NCBI GenBank assembly: GCA_963789955.1
Contig: CAWBMV010000012.1
Location: forward strand, 96,001 to 160,000
Direction: 5' to 3'
Origin: an uncultured Candidatus Rokubacteria bacterium
GTDB lineage: Bacteria > Methylomirabilota > Methylomirabilia > Rokubacteriales > CSP1-6
DNA: 64,000 bases
Shown: positions 37,403 through 44,834 of the stretch, in pieces
How positions within the stretch are numbered: the stretch's first letter is position 1
How the letters are laid out: every line of letters starts with the position of its first letter
Made by a program: the position numbers and the translations under genes
The notes under the pieces: model-generated
Databases searched by the model: none
Seen by the model: the letters and a program-made list of their open reading frames with translations, nothing else
What the model was told of the DNA's origin: nothing

Positions 37403-38515
37403 TCACCTCGCGGGTGTCGCGTCGGCGTGCCGGGAGAATCGCGGCATCACCTCGGTCGCCAGCAGCTCCATCGAGCGCCGCCAGAGCTTGGGCTGGTCCC
37501 AGTCCTGGCCCGACATCAGGAGCGTTCCGAAGTGGCCGACCTCGTCGCGTAGCGCGACGAGCTGATCGAGCACGCGTCGCGGGCTGCCGGCGATGACCAG
37601 CGCGCGCTTGACCGCGTCGAGCGTCACGGCCTCGTCGGGCACGTCGAGGTCGGGCTTCAACATGAAGAGCGCCTTGCGGCCTCGCGAGAAGCTGTGGATG
37701 AAGAAGTGGTAGTAGAACGAGAGGCCGTTCTCCGGATCGGCCAGATAGTCCTCGGCCTCGGCGTCGGTCTCGGTGACGAGCACGCTGCGCGACACGCGCC
37801 AGACGTCGGGATCGGGGCGCCGGCCGACCTTTTCGCAGCCTTCCACGTAGCGCTCCCAGTGACCGCGGAGGTATCGCCGGTGAAAGAACTGGCCGGAGAT
37901 GGGAATCCAGCCACGCTCGCCGGCGGTGCGGGCGCTCACCGAGTTCGGCGTCAGGATCGAGAGGGCGATCGGCGGATGCGGCTGCTGGAACGGCCGGGGA
38001 ATGTAGCCGACCTTGAACTCGGGCCAGATGGCCTGCTCGAGCGAGATCTTCCAGAAGCGGCCGTCGATCCGGTACGGCGGATCCTGCGACCAGAGCTTCA
38101 GCACCGTGTCGATGGACTCGAGCACCATCTGCGGGCGCAGCTCGGCCTGGCCCGAGTCGAAGAGCTCGAGGTCGCTCACGAGACCGCCCGGGCCGATGCC
38201 CATGATGAACCGTCCGCGCGCGAGCTGATCGAACATGGCCGCCTGCGCCGCCACCGTGGCCGGATGCACGTGGGGCATGTTGATCACGCCCGTGCCCAGC
38301 CGGATGTCGCGCGTGCGGCTGATCACGGTCGCCAGGAAGATCAGCGGCGAGGTGATGCGCTCGCTCCACGAGCTGAAGTGCTCGCCGACGAAGGCCTCGG
38401 AAAAGCCGAGCCGATCCGCGAGGATGATCGCTTCCTGGTCCTCTTCGAGCAGGTCGGCGTAGTCGCGCGCGGGGTGGTGGAAGGGCATCGTGAACATGCC
38501 GAGCCTGACGGTCAC
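37403..38515 (-). CDS. LLM class flavin-dependent oxidoreductase
   Basis: LG.F.MP.H.P, GEHF, GRF..GIGPGGL.SD and P.QQPHPPI motifs. Confidence 0.92.
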   Translation of the reverse strand: MTVRLGMFTMPFHHPARDYADLLEEDQEAIILADRLGFSEAFVGEHFSSWSERITSPLIFLATVISRTRDIRLGTGVINMPHVHPATVAAQAAMFDQLARGRFIMGIGPGGLVSDLELFDSGQAELRPQMVLESIDTVLKLWSQDPPYRIDGRFWKISLEQAIWPEFKVGYIPRPFQQPHPPIALSILTPNSVSARTAGERGWIPISGQFFHRRYLRGHWERYVEGCEKVGRRPDPDVWRVSRSVLVTETDAEAEDYLADPENGLSFYYHFFIHSFSRGRKALFMLKPDLDVPDEAVTLDAVKRALVIAGSPRRVLDQLVALRDEVGHFGTLLMSGQDWDQPKLWRRSMELLATEVMPRFSRHADATPAR

Positions 38516-38622
38516 GGGAAGCTCCTTTCGATCTCCGTGAGGCTATCACATCTACCGGCGCGCCTCGGCGCGGCGGCGGAATGACATACAATCCGGCCCA
38601 TCTCTCGAAAAGGAGCCCGACC

Positions 38623-39015
38623 ATGGCCGTGAGCGAAACCTACGAGAAGGGACGCGAGGTGCGCCGTCAGCTGCTGGGCGACGCGTACGTCGAGCGCGTC
38701 AACCAGACCGCGTACAACGATCCGATCATGAAGAAGTTCATCGACGTCGCGACCGAGACCGTCTTCGGCGCCTTGTGGACGCGCCCGGGATTGGATCTGA
38801 AGACCCGCACCTTGATTTGTGTCGTCTCCGACGCCGCGACCGCGCGGACGCCCGAGCTCGCCATCCACCTGCGGATGGCGCGCCGACAGGGCTGGAGCGA
38901 GGACGAGCTGATCGAGGTGCTGCTACACCTTTCCGGTTACGTCGGCGTGCCGCTGATCCGCGAGGCGATGCTGACGGCGAAGGACGTCTTCACCGAGATG
39001 AAGAAGGAGCGCTGA
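38623..39015 (+). CDS. Carboxymuconolactone decarboxylase family protein
   Basis: G...RR..LG, FG..W.RPGLD.KTR and EL.E.L.....Y.G.P; AAGGAG RBS before ATG 38623. Confidence 0.9.
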   Translation: MAVSETYEKGREVRRQLLGDAYVERVNQTAYNDPIMKKFIDVATETVFGALWTRPGLDLKTRTLICVVSDAATARTPELAIHLRMARRQGWSEDELIEVLLHLSGYVGVPLIREAMLTAKDVFTEMKKER

Positions 39016-39397: not shown

Positions 39398-40262
39398 ATG
39401 TCCGTCGTCCTCGTTACGGGTAGCAGCACCGGCATCGGCCTCGCCACGGCGCTCCACTTCGGGCGCCTTGGCGACGGAGTGTACGCCGGAGTCCGCAACA
39501 TCGCCACCGCGACCGAGCTCACGAAGGCGATCGAGGCCGAGAAGCTTCCGATCCACCCGATCACGCTCGACGTGGACGACGCAGGGCTCGGTGACCCGCG
39601 CGGTCGGCGAGGTGATTGCCAAGGCCGGCCGCATCGACGTCCTCGTCAACAACGCGGGGATCGGCGGAGGCGGCCCGGTCGAGGACGTGCCGGTCGACTG
39701 GGTGAAGAGCCTCTTCGAGACGAACTACCTCGGCGCCATCCGGATGATCCAGGCCGTCCTGCCCGGGATGCGCGAGCGCCGGAGCGGAGCGATCGTCAAC
39801 GTCAGCTCGATCGCCGGGAGGCTCGCGATCGCCGGGCACGGCCACTATTCGGCCGTGAAGCACGCGCTCGAAGCCATCAGCGAGGCGCTCGCTCAGGAGG
39901 TGCAGGCGTTCGGGATCCGCGTGGCCATCGTCGAGCCCGGCGTGGTCGTGACGCCGATCTTCACGAAGGCCAAGCGTTTCGCCGATCCCGCTTCGCCGTA
40001 CGCGGTTCATGTCCACCGGCTCTTGCTCTTCTATCAGATGCAGATGAAGACGCCGAGCCAGCCGGCCGACGTCGCCCGCGTCATCCACGAGGCGGTGACG
40101 ACGAAAGAGCCCAAGCTCCGCTATCTCGTCGGTGACGACGCGGAGCGACTGGTCGCGGGCCGACGCAAGCTGACCGACGAGGAATACGTGGCGACCGGGC
40201 GCCTGATGCCCGACGCCGAGTATCTCGACCTGATGCGTCGACGCTACGGGTTTGACTGGTAG
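39398..40262 (+). CDS. SDR family oxidoreductase (frameshift near 39585)
   Basis: VLVTGSSTGIG in one frame; NNAG, YSAVK and VEPG in the next. Confidence 0.9.
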
Positions 40263-40334
40263 TGCGAGCCGCAGGTCGGCGCGGCGACCGAGAGCCTTAG
40301 GAAAGAGCAGTAAGAGAGCAGTAAGGAGGACGCG

Positions 40335-41976
40335 ATGAACAAAGTCACGGTCCTGAACCCGGTCGGTTTCCCGCCCAAAGTGGTCAAGAAGCCGCTGGCG
40401 CCGCGCCTCGCGACGCTCGAGGGCAAGACGGTCTACCTGGTCGATTGCCGCTTCGACGATTCCGACGTCTTCCTCAAGCAGATGCAGGCGTGGTTCGGCG
40501 AGCACATGCCGGGCGTGCGCACGGTGTTCAAGCCGATCTCGAGCGTCTATCTCAAGGACGACCCCACGACCTGGGAGGAGATCAAGGCGAGGGGGCACGC
40601 CGCGATCGTCGGCGTCGGCCACTGAAGCACCTGCGCGCCGGCGGTCGCCGCGCACGCGATGACGATCGAAGCGCAGTACGGAGTGCCCACCGTCGCCATG
40701 CACACCGACAAGTTCGACCGCGTGGCCCGCAACGTGGCCGCGGTCAACGGCATGTCGGAGCTCCGGCAGGTGTTCGTCCCTCAACCGGTCATGGGCAAGT
40801 CCCCGCGTGAGCTCCGCGCCTACGTCGACGGCAAAGATCCGCTGACCGGGCGCCCCGTGATGCAGGAAGTCATCGAAGGCCTGACCACGCCGTTCGATGG
40901 TCAGGGGGTCGGGACGATCGAGTACGACCGGTCCACGCCGCGGCTGGTCGACGCGGATACCGAGGAGAACCTGCAGCGCCTCTTCATGGAGAGCCGCTGG
41001 ACGGACTACCTGCCGATCGTGCTCCCGACGGAGGAGCGAGTCGCGGCCATGCTGGCGGCGACCCGCCGCAAGCCGGACGAGATCGTCGGGCGCATGCGTC
41101 CGACGCACTTCCGCGAAGCGTGGGAATACACGGTCGAGAAAGTCGCGGTGAACGCGGTGATGTCCGGCGCCCGTCCGGAATATTTCCCGGTGATCCTGGC
41201 GCTGGCGGCGACCGGCGTGAGCGCGCGCGGCAGCACGACCAGCTCGATGGCCGCGATGGCCGTCGTCAACGGCCCGATCCGCAACGAGATCAAGATGAAC
41301 GCGGGGACCGGCGCCCTCGCGCCCTACAACCACGCGAACGCGACGATCGGCCGCGCCTACGGCTTGCTCTCGCAGAATCTGCAGGGCAGCTCGGTGCCCG
41401 GGATCACCTACATGGGCTCCCAGGGCAACAACTACGCGTACAACAGCATCACGTTCCCGGAGAACGAGGAGCGGAGCCCGTGGGAGCCCTTCCACGTCCA
41501 GCACGGCTTCCGCGCGACCGACAGCACCGTGAGCGTGTTCAGCGGCTGTCGCGCGACCGCCTACACGCTCGGTGTTCGCGAGAAGCATTGGCAGGAGCAC
41601 GTCCGCAACATGCTGCGCGGCATGGATCCGCACATTCCCGCCGGTGTTCGTGCTCGATCCGATCACGGCACGCCAGTTCATCGACCGGGGCGGGTTCACC
41701 AAGAAGGACGCGCTGATCGACTGGGTGTACGAGAACGCGCGGATGCCGGCCGGCGAGTTCTGGGACTACCAGCTCGTGCAGAACTACCTCTACCCGCGCG
41801 CGACGTTCGGGGAGGAGCCGTGGGCCTCGAAGCTCAAGGCCGCGCCCGACGAGATGATCCAGATGTTCAAGCGTGAGGACATCCACGTCGTGGTGGTCGG
41901 CGGCGAGACGAATCCCTACTGGCGCATCATGGGCGCGACGTACGCGAAGACCGTCTCGATCGACGACTGGCGGTAG
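40335..41976 (+). CDS. Probable selenoprotein: UGSC-type (seleno)domain with UxxC fused to a large partner domain (in-frame UGA at 40623-40625; frameshift near 41640)
   Basis: ORFs 40335-40625 and 40659-41876 are in the same frame and separated only by TGA. Read-through gives GVGH-U-STCAP, and a SECIS-like hairpin follows. The C-terminus continues in the 41572-41976 frame. Confidence 0.85.
40632..40654 (+). promoter_or_regulatory. Bacterial SECIS-like hairpin
   Basis: TGCGC-(GCC)-GGC-[GGTC]-GCC-GCGCA, with 17 nt between the UGA and the apical GGUC loop. Confidence 0.7.
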
Positions 41977-42054
41977 GAACCGACCGGGCTGACGCTATCT
42001 ATCGCGTCGCGGCTGGTTCTTGATAGCGGCTCCACGACCATCTACGGTGGTGGT

Positions 42055-42816
42055 ATGGCTACATACCATCACCGCTGCGGGTCTCGCTGGAGTACTCTCG
42101 CGTCGGTCGCCCTGACCGCGAGCCTTCTCGTGGCCTTCACGCTCGCGGGCACTGGGTCGGCCCCGGTGTTGTTCCCGGCCGCCCCGCCGTCTGGCGGCAT
42201 CGTCGTCGACGAAGCGAGGCTGATCGCCCCTCTCGACCAGGTGGATCTCGAAGGACTTGCGATCGCGCTCAAACGCGACCGCGGCTATCCCATCACCGTG
42301 GTCACGATCCAGTCGCTCTCAGCGTACGGCGCCGCCGGCTACACGATCGAGCGCTACGCCTCCGAGATGCTGAAGGCGTGGCCCGCCGACCCGGAGCGGC
42401 AGGGCTACGGACTCACCTTGCTCGTCTCGGCCGATGATCGCCTGGCACGCATCGAGCTCGGATCCGCGTGGCGGGGCACGCACGACGGCCGGGTTCGAGA
42501 GATCGCGGACCGCCTGATCCTCCCGGCGCTCCGTCGCGGCGATCTCTCGAAGGGGATTCTGGCCGGCGTGCGAGGGCTCGACGCCATGGGCCGGGGATTC
42601 CGACTGCCCGGAGAGTGGTTCGGATGGATGCTCCCCGAGCCCCTGGCCCCCTTGGCTCAACCGTGGTGGCTCATCCCAGCGATCGTCGTCGGCGTCGTCC
42701 TTCTCATCGGCTCAGTCACCCCCTTTGGCCGCAGGAGGCGCAAGAGGCTGGCGCGGGCCGCCGCCGGGCTCATCGGCGAGATCGAGCAAGTCGTGAGAGC
42801 GGAGGGGCGCCGCTAG
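42055..42816 (+). CDS. TPM domain-containing membrane protein
   Basis: VVDEA.LI, I.VVTI.SL, IE.YA, LLVS..DR.ARIELG and a C-terminal TM segment. Confidence 0.85.
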   Translation: MATYHHRCGSRWSTLASVALTASLLVAFTLAGTGSAPVLFPAAPPSGGIVVDEARLIAPLDQVDLEGLAIALKRDRGYPITVVTIQSLSAYGAAGYTIERYASEMLKAWPADPERQGYGLTLLVSADDRLARIELGSAWRGTHDGRVREIADRLILPALRRGDLSKGILAGVRGLDAMGRGFRLPGEWFGWMLPEPLAPLAQPWWLIPAIVVGVVLLIGSVTPFGRRRRKRLARAAAGLIGEIEQVVRAEGRR

Positions 42817-42820
42817 TCTG

Positions 42821-43816
42821 TCAGATGCCCAGCAGCCGCTCCAGGTTGCGCCAGAGGATCGCTTCTTTCTCGGCCTGGGTGAGGCTCTCCATGGCGAGGA
42901 TCCACGAGACCGGCCAGTCGAGCGCCATGTCGTAGGGCCAGTCCGTGCCGAAGACCACGCGGTCGGCGCCCACCGTGTCGATCAGGAAGCGCAGGGCCGG
43001 CTCGGTGTAGACGATGCAGTCGTAGTAGAAGCGCCGCAGATACGCGCTCGGCGGCTGGCTGATGTTCACGCGCGCCTCGGACCGGACCTTCCAGCCGTGG
43101 TCCATCCGGCCGATCCCGTAGCAGGTGTAGCCCCCGCCGTGGCCGAGCACGATCTTGAGGTCGGGGCACGCGTCCATGACGCCGCCGGACACGAGCGTGG
43201 CGAACGTCACCGCGCGGTCGACCAGATTGCCGATGCTGTTCGGCAGGTGATAGCGCTTGGTCCGCTGGGTCACGAGCGTCTCGCCGGCCTGATGGAAGAA
43301 GATGAGCGCGCCGAGCTGCTCCGCCGCCTTCCAGAACGGGCGGAACTCCGGCTCCTCGAGCGTGCGCCCGTTGACGTGGTCGTTGATCTCCGCGCCCTTG
43401 AGGCCGAGCCGGATCACGCAGCGCTCGAGCTCGGCGATCGACGCCTTCACGTCTTGCATCGGAAGGGTGCCGAGCCCGGCGAACCGCGTCGGCCACGCGC
43501 GGGTCATCGAGGCGATCTCGTCGTTGGTCTCCTGCGCCGTGGCCGTCGCGAGCTTCGCGTCGAGCTGATAGTTGTAGAACCCGACGTAGGGCGAGACGAC
43601 GTGCACGTCGACCCCGAGCGAGTCCATGTCGGCCAGCCGCTCCTCGGGCGTCCACTTCGCGCGCGGTGGAAGCATCTGCCGTCCGCTCCCGACGAGGGCG
43701 ATCTCCTGGCCGTTCGCGTCCTTCTCGCGGCGCAGCGTGTGCCAGTTGCCGCCGTTCTCGGTGGCCCGCCAGAAGCACTGCGGCGTCAGGTGCGCGTGAA
43801 CGTCGATGCTCCGCAT
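42821..43816 (-). CDS. Amidohydrolase_2 family protein (ACMSD-like)
   Basis: IDVHAH, LPMQD, HGGGY and FGTDWPYDM motifs. Confidence 0.92.
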   Translation of the reverse strand: MRSIDVHAHLTPQCFWRATENGGNWHTLRREKDANGQEIALVGSGRQMLPPRAKWTPEERLADMDSLGVDVHVVSPYVGFYNYQLDAKLATATAQETNDEIASMTRAWPTRFAGLGTLPMQDVKASIAELERCVIRLGLKGAEINDHVNGRTLEEPEFRPFWKAAEQLGALIFFHQAGETLVTQRTKRYHLPNSIGNLVDRAVTFATLVSGGVMDACPDLKIVLGHGGGYTCYGIGRMDHGWKVRSEARVNISQPPSAYLRRFYYDCIVYTEPALRFLIDTVGADRVVFGTDWPYDMALDWPVSWILAMESLTQAEKEAILWRNLERLLGI

Positions 43817-43847
43817 CGTCTCCTCCTGTCCCTGCTATTCTTGCGCC

Positions 43848-44834
43848 GTGCCCACACGGGTCGCGGCGATCGGCGTCAGCCACTGGCACTCGCTCTACGA
43901 CTCGGCCTACCTGCGCCACCTGAGCGGCATGCCCGACATGCGGCTCGTCGCGCTTCAAGACTCGAGCGAGTCGATCGCCGCGCAGCGGGCGGCGGCGCTG
44001 GGCGATCCGACGGTCTACACGGACTACCGGCGGATGCTGACGGAGACCCGACCCGACTTCGTGATCGCGCTCGGCCGACACAGTAGCATGGCGGAGACCG
44101 CGCTTTACCTCGTCGATCAGGGCTATCCGTTCCTGATGGAAAAGCCGATGGGCATCGACGCCGACGAGGTCCGTCGCGTCGCCGACCGGGCCGTCGCGAA
44201 GAACGCGTTCGCGGCCGTGCCCCTCGGGCAGCGCTATCAGCCCTTCGTCACCCGGGCCCGCGCGCTCGCGGCCGCGGGGCAATTCGGGCCGCTGTCGCAC
44301 ATCTACTTTCGATTGAACCGCCCCACGTCGGCGCGCTACGTCGCGTGGGACGCGCCGTGGATGCTCGATCCCAAGGACGCGGGCGGCGGCTGCCTGCGTA
44401 ACCTCGGCCCGCACGGACTCGATCTGTTCCTGTTCCTGACCGGCGAGGATGCGCGCGTGATCGGAGCTCAGGTCAGCTCGCGCGCGCTCGGCCAGGCGGT
44501 CGAGGACTACGCGTCGGTCCTGCTGCGGTCGACCAGCGGCGTGCTCGGGACGATCGAGGTCGGCAACACGTTTCCTCGCATCGGAACCGACGGGGAATCG
44601 AAGATCGCCTGGCGTGACGCGATCCTGACCTTGAAGGACGATACGCTTCGGCTCACGACGGCGACGGGTGAAGAGACCGCACCGGGTGCGCCGGCCGAGC
44701 CGATCGCCCTGACCGCGTTACGCGATGCGCTCGACCATTGGCGTCGAGGGCAGCCGCCGCCGATCAGCGTCCACGATTGTCTGCGCGCGGTGCACCTGAT
44801 CGACCAGGCCTACGCGCTGGCGAAGGTGCCCTAA
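43848..44834 (+). CDS. Gfo/Idh/MocA family oxidoreductase
   Basis: IGVSHWH, MEKP, GGG.LRNLG.H..D and ED.A motifs; probable GTG start. Confidence 0.9.
   Translation: MPTRVAAIGVSHWHSLYDSAYLRHLSGMPDMRLVALQDSSESIAAQRAAALGDPTVYTDYRRMLTETRPDFVIALGRHSSMAETALYLVDQGYPFLMEKPMGIDADEVRRVADRAVAKNAFAAVPLGQRYQPFVTRARALAAAGQFGPLSHIYFRLNRPTSARYVAWDAPWMLDPKDAGGGCLRNLGPHGLDLFLFLTGEDARVIGAQVSSRALGQAVEDYASVLLRSTSGVLGTIEVGNTFPRIGTDGESKIAWRDAILTLKDDTLRLTTATGEETAPGAPAEPIALTALRDALDHWRRGQPPPISVHDCLRAVHLIDQAYALAKVP

Follow-up and report, generated by a model that had tools for sequence, protein, structure and literature searches.

Positions 40335-41976 of the DNA analysed here, a 64,000-nucleotide stretch from an uncultured Candidatus Rokubacteria bacterium (the window), form one selenoprotein gene of about 546 residues that belongs to the UGSC-fusion family and is mis-annotated by gene callers at its selenocysteine (Sec) codon. 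The window corresponds to G000:C12:96001-160000 in an assembly of 6.77 Mb and 38 contigs, with a completeness of 87.2% and a contamination of 5.14%. We consider it very probable that the locus as a whole is best explained by a single Sec gene with a selenocysteine insertion sequence (SECIS), which encodes a fusion of a UGSC domain to the domain named Unknown_1, would act through a Sec-Cys redox mechanism, and carries a frameshift that is most likely an assembly error. The features of the gene are as follows.

40323..40329, + strand: Shine-Dalgarno sequence AAGGAGG, read from the sequence, 5 nt upstream of ATG 40335
40335..41976, + strand: whole selenoprotein gene, with ATG at 40335, Sec codon at 40623 and TAG stop at 41974-41976
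40350..40826, + strand: UGSC domain (Pfam PF24696), residues 6-164, with a predicted flavodoxin/CheY-like fold
40623..40625, + strand: UGA putatively read as Sec, giving GVGH-U-STC on read-through; TGA in 20 of 20 close loci
40635..40653, + strand: putative SECIS hairpin within the reading frame, with seven pairs, a bulged C40639 and a GGUC loop at 40643-40646
40947..41973, + strand: partner domain ('Unknown_1' of Zhang and Gladyshev 2008), residues ~205-546, with the motifs WTDYLPIVLPTEERV and AVNAVMSGARPEYFPV
41637..41639, + strand: CCC run with one base too many, giving a +1 frame shift that splits the partner domain

The first open reading frame (ORF), 40335-40625, is closed by the TGA at 40623-40625. 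Beyond the TGA, the same frame stays open with AGC ACC TGC, past an internal ATG at 40659 and up to 41876, and the rest of the protein is encoded in a second frame (41572-41976). This layout, read directly from the sequence, agrees with a preliminary description of the locus, which had proposed read-through of the UGA and pointed out that ATG 40659 has no obvious ribosome-binding site. Inspection of the sequence before ATG 40659 revealed no such site; a strong one instead precedes ATG 40335. The read-through translation likewise gives the predicted GVGH-U-STC, and the indel suspected near 41640 is indeed present as one extra base at 41637-41639, without which 40335-41976 comprises 546 codons encoding 546 amino acids. 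The description also spoke of three ORFs. The Sec codon does split the gene, but the split is partly due to a one-base insertion that is peculiar to the assembly and not to biology. Similarly, the selenoprotein is 'hidden' from gene callers, but its family and fusion are already present in PMC2398784, Pfam, and NCBIfam.

The frame across the TGA matched Pfam PF24696 with 85.9 bits (E 4.6e-24, profile positions 2-159 of 172, gathering cut-off 25), and the pieces before and after the TGA scored 29 and 35.5 bits, respectively. The proposed fusion of a UGSC-type domain to a TD(G/Y)LP...PT partner was borne out. The NCBIfam equivalog NF041046 matched with 63.3 bits (E 2.5e-17), below its curated cut-off of 125 bits. 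Judged by the NF041046 model, the USTC fusion proteins are a divergent subfamily, although public sources name their orthologs 'UGSC family (seleno)protein'. An exhaustive search of representative sequences returned 4,707 clusters at E <=0.001 and 545 at E <=1e-30, and a search of the ESM Atlas returned unnamed clusters only.

The UGSC family and its fusion to 'Unknown_1' were published in 2008 by Zhang and Gladyshev in PLoS Genet (PMC2398784). That paper counts the UGSC-containing protein, with 255 Sec and 21 Cys sequences, among the selenoprotein families best represented in the Global Ocean Sampling (GOS) survey of marine metagenomes. Like the described family (PMC2398784, PF24696, NF041046), the window gene places Sec in a UxxC motif after a beta strand, shows Sec/Cys alternation among homologs, and has the same domain as its fusion partner. 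Figure S1A of PMC2398784 contains the AVNxVMAGxxPEYxP block of that partner domain; the block AVNGVMAGCRPEYMP... of the figure is AVNAVMSGARPEYFP in the window gene. Unlike the family, the window gene has U-S-T-C in place of U-G-S-C. The literal motif U/C-G-S-C is absent from the window gene and from all 74 subfamily loci that carry the motif, which have the U-S-T-C form with the UxxC spacing kept. Other differences are that the conserved Cys of the partner's MAGC motif is Ala (MSGA) in the window gene, that its SECIS sequence differs from those of six canonical UGSC paralogs in the same genome, and that the fold modelled here is flavodoxin/CheY-like, whereas PMC2398784 guessed a thioredoxin-like fold.

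Orthologs were searched in 61 genomes (the window genome and 60 relatives, including the unpublished G025), of which 59 gave a match at E <=1e-20. The close set consisted of 20 loci, namely the window and 19 others with 76-97% identity. The pattern G-x-G-H-TGA-x-x-C was present in all 20; the search pattern itself demanded TGA, and no locus failed it. Sixteen of the 19 foreign orthologs are uninterrupted frames of 546-548 aa ending in ...D-x-W-R; of the other three, one runs off the end of its contig and two (L050, L051) are broken. It should be noted that 7 of the 16 intact orthologs terminate at an ordinary TGA stop, indicating that the genetic code has not been reassigned.

Among 5.8 billion proteins, the homolog search yielded two kinds of match. 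The first kind were 438-aa proteins with 82-94% identity that start at the Met after the TGA and thus represent the truncated form of gene callers; one of them is named 'MAG TPA: UGSC family (seleno)protein [Methylomirabilota bacterium]' by NCBI. The second kind were full-length proteins of 546-558 aa with 67-73% identity and GVGH-C-STC at the site, such as those from Aquamicrobium sp. LC103 and a Bradyrhizobiaceae metagenome-assembled genome (MAG). From one-genome-per-species contigs we assembled a wider set of 80 loci, of which 74 carry the motif and six fall outside the search pattern. At the Sec column, TGA occurred in 51 and TGC in 23 of the 74 loci, with similarity on both sides of the column, as expected from the preliminary description. 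The Sec forms come from records labelled Rokubacteria, Binatia, Chloroflexota, deltaproteobacteria, and Verrucomicrobiia; the Cys forms are mostly from Alphaproteobacteria and also from Thiobacillus, Ramlibacter, and Lustribacter. A TAA or TAG stop at this column, which had been named as an outcome that would speak against Sec, was seen in no ortholog. These data support the predicted reading of UGA 40623 as selenocysteine. No change at 40623-40625 was among those listed for metagenome contigs of close relatives.

The genome contains the genes for selenocysteine incorporation. The tRNA-Sec scored 69.8 bits against a gathering score of 47 and has the anticodon TCA (ARAGORN), and selA (592 bits), selB (359 bits), and selD (304 bits) were all above their cut-offs. 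The genes for tRNA-Sec, selA, and selB are clustered at C1:731972-736707, and selD lies on contig C6, so that the four genes suggested as a check (selA, selB, selC, and selD) were all found. The selD match (L027, G000:C6:163005-166826, positions 1345-1560) begins only at profile position 42, and the in-frame sequence upstream of it is unlike the SelD N-terminus and contains a TGA. This region may hold another indel or a Sec-containing SelD.

Nine UGSC matches were found in the genome, each with one in-frame TGA. Besides the window gene, these are the following loci.

C19:53987, C6:147642, C34:764112, C22:153213, C4:1625, C3:53486, C13:30951, C8:38461: eight further UGSC loci, one in-frame TGA each

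The partner lies upstream as a separate frame in three of the eight and is fused downstream in five. All nine UGSC domains of the genome are thus fused to or adjoin a partner domain, and two more partner copies stand alone. Six canonical UGSC paralogs share a different and clearer hairpin (CGUCGAGCA-GUG-UGCUCGACG), in which compensatory changes distinguish the copies, and the loci on C13 and C8 have a hairpin with a GGGC loop. The genome also encodes a GrdB/PrdB-like (PF07355) selenoprotein (L142, G000:C22:50588-54019, positions ~1552-2328), in which Sec is part of VLVPS-U-PVC. A second, weak PF07355 match was located at G000:C1:590970-591194.

In the RNAalifold consensus of 36 distinct sequences, positions 40635-40638 pair with 40650-40653 and positions 40640-40642 with 40647-40649. 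The in-frame hairpin reported in the preliminary description is therefore present, with its GGUC loop starting 17 nt past the UGA, and its significance rests on conservation at synonymous sites and not on fold energy (z 0.40). A codon test was carried out with 17 close orthologs, after exclusion of a partial locus and the two broken ones. Only 23 of the 244 conserved four- or six-fold codons were invariant, and six of these are consecutive, at +4 to +9 after Sec; the second-longest run was two codons. The longest invariant nucleotide run, 23 nt, likewise falls at the codons after Sec (second-longest, 11 nt), and the five lowest-diversity 11-codon segments out of 315 all cover the place of the hairpin.

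The wider set showed the same constraint. For codons +4 to +8 (A-P-A-V-A), the 51 Sec genes use GCG in 51, CCG in 49, GCG in 50, GTC in 50, and GCC in 49. The 23 Cys genes have mixed codons for the same residues, with identical codons in only 19/23, 11/23, 9/22, 16/21, and 7/16, respectively. On either side of this stretch, at codons +1 to +3 and +10 to +12, the Sec genes are variable. The 19 hairpin-forming bases are thus fixed at synonymous sites in Sec genes but variable in Cys genes. Two Sec orthologs have a divergent sequence after the UGA. By eye, the GGUC loop is kept and one pair is swapped in one of them (L113:7292-7333), and a related hairpin with a CGUGA loop is possible in the other (L124:1049-1090). 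The depth of metagenome contigs peaks at 40601-40661, the bin with the UGA and the hairpin (e.g., 994.9 in X2 versus 0-445 elsewhere), as expected if the stretch is nearly identical across many related organisms.

The putative element resembles the SECIS of fdhF in E. coli and Salmonella, in which a hairpin likewise lies directly 3' of the UGA inside the frame, is capped by a GGUC loop, and bulges out one pyrimidine from its 5' strand beneath that loop. PMC4489274 prints the Salmonella fdhF element and calls its bulged U and GGUC loop important for function. Counted on that sequence from the U of the UGA, the loop starts at base 22, compared with base 21 in the window. However, the stem sequence of the window element is different, its bulge is C and not U, and three pairs instead of four separate the bulge from the loop.

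An AlphaFold2 model of an intact ortholog, built with 58 aligned homologs, had a predicted local distance difference test score (pLDDT) of 94.9 and a predicted template modelling score (pTM) of 0.93. Residues 30-192 were modelled as five alternating strand-helix units, with Sec predicted at the end of strand 3, before helix 3, and Cys three residues further on (U-S-T-C). The VIA matches for these residues, with Z up to 10.5 and none of them outstanding, were three-layer folds resembling CheY, flavodoxin, and Rossmann proteins. No thioredoxin was among the top 50 matches listed, although absence from such a list does not rule a family out. The UGSC domain is thus predicted to be flavodoxin-like. 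The earlier label 'thioredoxin-like' fits the UxxC motif, and the predicted fold is flavodoxin/CheY-like.

Modelled alone, the partner domain reached a pLDDT of 95.3, and it has no solved structural relative by the following searches. No Pfam family matched it at E <=10, and the family profile gave two chance rows only (E 0.25) against PDB sequences. Foldseek searches of the PDB, one using the complete model and one using the partner domain, returned nothing at E <=0.001; the best hits, class I fumarate hydratase and Toblerone-fold hydrolases, had template modelling (TM) scores of 0.2-0.3 and were treated as noise. A wide VIA-align search with the partner domain found no chain at Z >=8, and the best match had Z 5.7 over 76 residues of an OmpA-like subdomain. 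Invariant residues of the partner domain are T225, D226, P233, G280, G315, R342, and E378 (L033 numbering, with Sec at 98).

We clustered neighbouring ORFs in the 70 of the 80 wider loci that had at least 6 kb of sequence. The commonest neighbour, found in 22 of the 70 loci, is a protein of ~310 aa that matches the thioredoxin-disulfide reductase model TIGR01292 end to end with 300-316 bits (cut-off 343). Its gene lies within ~1.5 kb of the ortholog, shares its strand in 19 of the 22 loci, and there usually sits less than 200 nt downstream. It accompanies both Sec and Cys forms and spans at least five labelled phyla, with loci from Chloroflexota, Binatia, deltaproteobacteria, Verrucomicrobiia, and Rhizobiales.

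The window protein is probably a reductase with a Sec-Cys redox pair, which would be fed by a thioredoxin-reductase-like partner. In the proposed mechanism, the ribosome would start at ATG 40335, Sec would be inserted at UGA 40623 by SelB and tRNA-Sec under the guidance of the SECIS at 40635-40653, and translation would then take in the second domain and end at the TAG at 41974. The Sec-Cys pair would alternate between the selenol/thiol and selenenylsulfide states, supply reducing power to a substrate that the partner domain holds, and be re-reduced from NAD(P)H by the thioredoxin-reductase-like flavoprotein.

This scheme resembles that of the Sec-UxxC proteins B of glycine and proline reductases. 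In Grd and Prd, selenoprotein B works with a second, substrate-handling polypeptide or domain. The window protein is also paired with a second domain, for which we propose a substrate-handling role. As in GrdB/PrdB (PF07355), the Sec of a U-x-x-C motif would come straight after a beta strand and lead into a helix and then a G(V/I)(P/S)TV strand. An hhalign comparison of the family with the genome's own PF07355 protein aligned 71 columns, Sec on Sec, with E 5.2e-4 and a probability of only 31%, which is no more than suggestive of a distant relation to GrdB/PrdB. No relation was detected between the partner domain and GrdE or PrdA, and no sign of a pyruvoyl-forming cleavage site was noticed, although no test aimed at one was made. 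The Sec-on-Sec alignment and the recurrent thioredoxin-reductase-like neighbour support the redox mechanism proposed above.

More tentatively, and with somewhat less than even confidence, we suggest that the U/C-S-T-C subfamily may be the core of an undescribed NAD(P)H-dependent reductase. Electrons would pass from a dedicated thioredoxin-reductase-like flavoprotein to the Sec-Cys pair of a flavodoxin-fold domain with a distant relation to GrdB/PrdB, and from there to a small molecule on the partner domain. The nine Sec loci in one Methylomirabilota-type genome could then be a set of substrate-specific enzymes.

Could the TGA be an ordinary stop between separate genes, one encoding a 96-aa protein and the other a protein of 405-438 aa from ATG 40659? 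Public gene calls do give 438-aa proteins that begin at the equivalent ATG, and the hairpin is not marked out by minimum-free-energy (MFE) folding. However, such a stop would cut the Pfam UGSC domain in two, leave the second gene without a ribosome-binding site, and fail to account for the 23 homologs with Cys at this column inside one unbroken frame of 546-558 aa. The retention of both TGA and frame in 51 loci from several phyla, the fixation of synonymous sites only downstream of the TGA, and the complete Sec machinery of the genome also stand against it, and we regard it as highly improbable. Read-through without selenocysteine, by a reassigned code or near-cognate suppression that inserts Trp, Gly, or Cys, would open the frame just as well, and nothing specific speaks in its favour. 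It is hard to reconcile with the 7 of 16 intact orthologs in which TGA is the normal stop of this very gene, with Cys as the residue in 23 of 23 TGA-free homologs, with the dedicated tRNA-Sec, selA, selB, and selD, and with a downstream RNA constraint of the very kind that SelB-dependent recoding requires. We give this explanation equally little credence.

A separate question is whether this copy of the gene is intact. At the frame change near 41640, the window reads CACATTCCCGCC and the ortholog with 97% identity reads CACATTCCGCC. The extra C is peculiar to the window, being absent from 10 of 10 congeneric loci in one alignment and from 5 of 5 relatives in a second. Since all relatives simply lack the base, programmed +1 frameshifting was rejected. 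The family assignment could be right and this copy still be a true pseudogene, in which the extra C is a genuine mutation cutting the partner domain short; the organism would then depend on the eight other UGSC loci. The extra base does stand in the assembly and not in the congeneric loci, two other orthologs in related assemblies (L050, L051) are broken too, and the eight further UGSC loci exist. However, the upstream gene of a short-chain dehydrogenase/reductase (SDR; 39398-40262, + strand) is split by a single base at ~39581-39586 that is again window-only and absent from 10 of 10 congeneric loci, which makes an assembly error likelier than decay. The UGSC loci on C22 and C4 of the same assembly also change frame, and this pattern is what indel errors in short homopolymers would produce. 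The window gene is otherwise undamaged and 97% identical to an intact ortholog. Contigs of close relatives from soil metagenomes and one metatranscriptome have the intact form, with one base fewer at 41635 or 41640; no sequencing run contained more than 0.53 of the sampled words, so none is shown to be the source sample. The frameshift is therefore quite probably an assembly indel, and a true pseudogene is unlikely.

Several observations weigh against the explanation favoured here, namely one Sec gene with a SECIS and a Sec-Cys redox function. The window copy is frameshifted and could be dead. The MFE fold of 40617-40680, in GC-rich DNA, is no better than that of shuffled sequence and chooses a different pairing, and an Rfam scan of 40000-42500 at E <=10 gave no SECIS family but three chance-level small-RNA rows. 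Covariation is almost nil because the stem hardly varies, the only compensatory change among the aligned sequences being a single G-C to C-G. Two other registers, drawn by hand, do about as well, with 92.6% and 97.6% of cells paired, and with almost no variation, covariation counts could not separate these two. The Sec and Cys sets are phylogenetically separate, and part of the codon contrast could thus reflect lineage. Regarding function, the Rokubacteria loci, including the window, have no adjacent thioredoxin-reductase-like gene, and the link to GrdB is weak, with no PF07355 match by hmmscan at E <=10 and the low hhalign probability given above. The Ala in the window gene replaces a partner-domain Cys that is highlighted in PMC2398784, and more distant fused homologs lack the Cys/Sec pair, so that not all of the wider family uses redox chemistry.

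The family and the fusion architecture are already known, and NCBI and UniRef name the orthologs, including truncated ones. The new elements are the flavodoxin-like UGSC model, the partner domain without a solved relative, and the thioredoxin-reductase-like gene adjoining orthologs in 22 of 70 loci. For annotation, the locus is one gene and not three ORFs, and the error is widespread, with hundreds of public 438-aa entries truncated. UGSC ranks among the most abundant families of bacterial selenoproteins, and no function has yet been assigned to it; a 2026 review (PMC13188914) lists the family under NF041046, describes the functions of such selenoproteins as largely uncharacterised, and mentions a Methylomirabilota MAG predicted to hold 63 selenoprotein genes. 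Tests of function are now easier, given the cultured alphaproteobacteria with full-length Cys forms, the recurrent reductase neighbour, and a confident structure model that separates the flavodoxin-like Sec domain from the partner domain. Cultured carriers of the Cys form include Chelativorans sp. J32, Methylocella sp., and Terripilifer ovatus. None of these gains is specific to the window locus.

Genes for binding proteins of the TctC family (tripartite tricarboxylate transporter) occurred no more than 6 kb from the ortholog in 13 of the 70 loci (among L079-L121), mostly in Binatia and deltaproteobacteria. The TctC-type family is greatly expanded in some lineages, and these neighbours were set aside as a clue to the substrate. 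In the window, the flanks of the gene (37403-39015 and 42821-44834) encode an LLM-class flavin/F420 oxidoreductase (minus strand), a carboxymuconolactone-decarboxylase-family protein, a 331-aa ORF without an NCBIfam match, and a Gfo/Idh/MocA oxidoreductase. Several Chloroflexota loci likewise have a Gfo/Idh/MocA gene, directly behind the ortholog.

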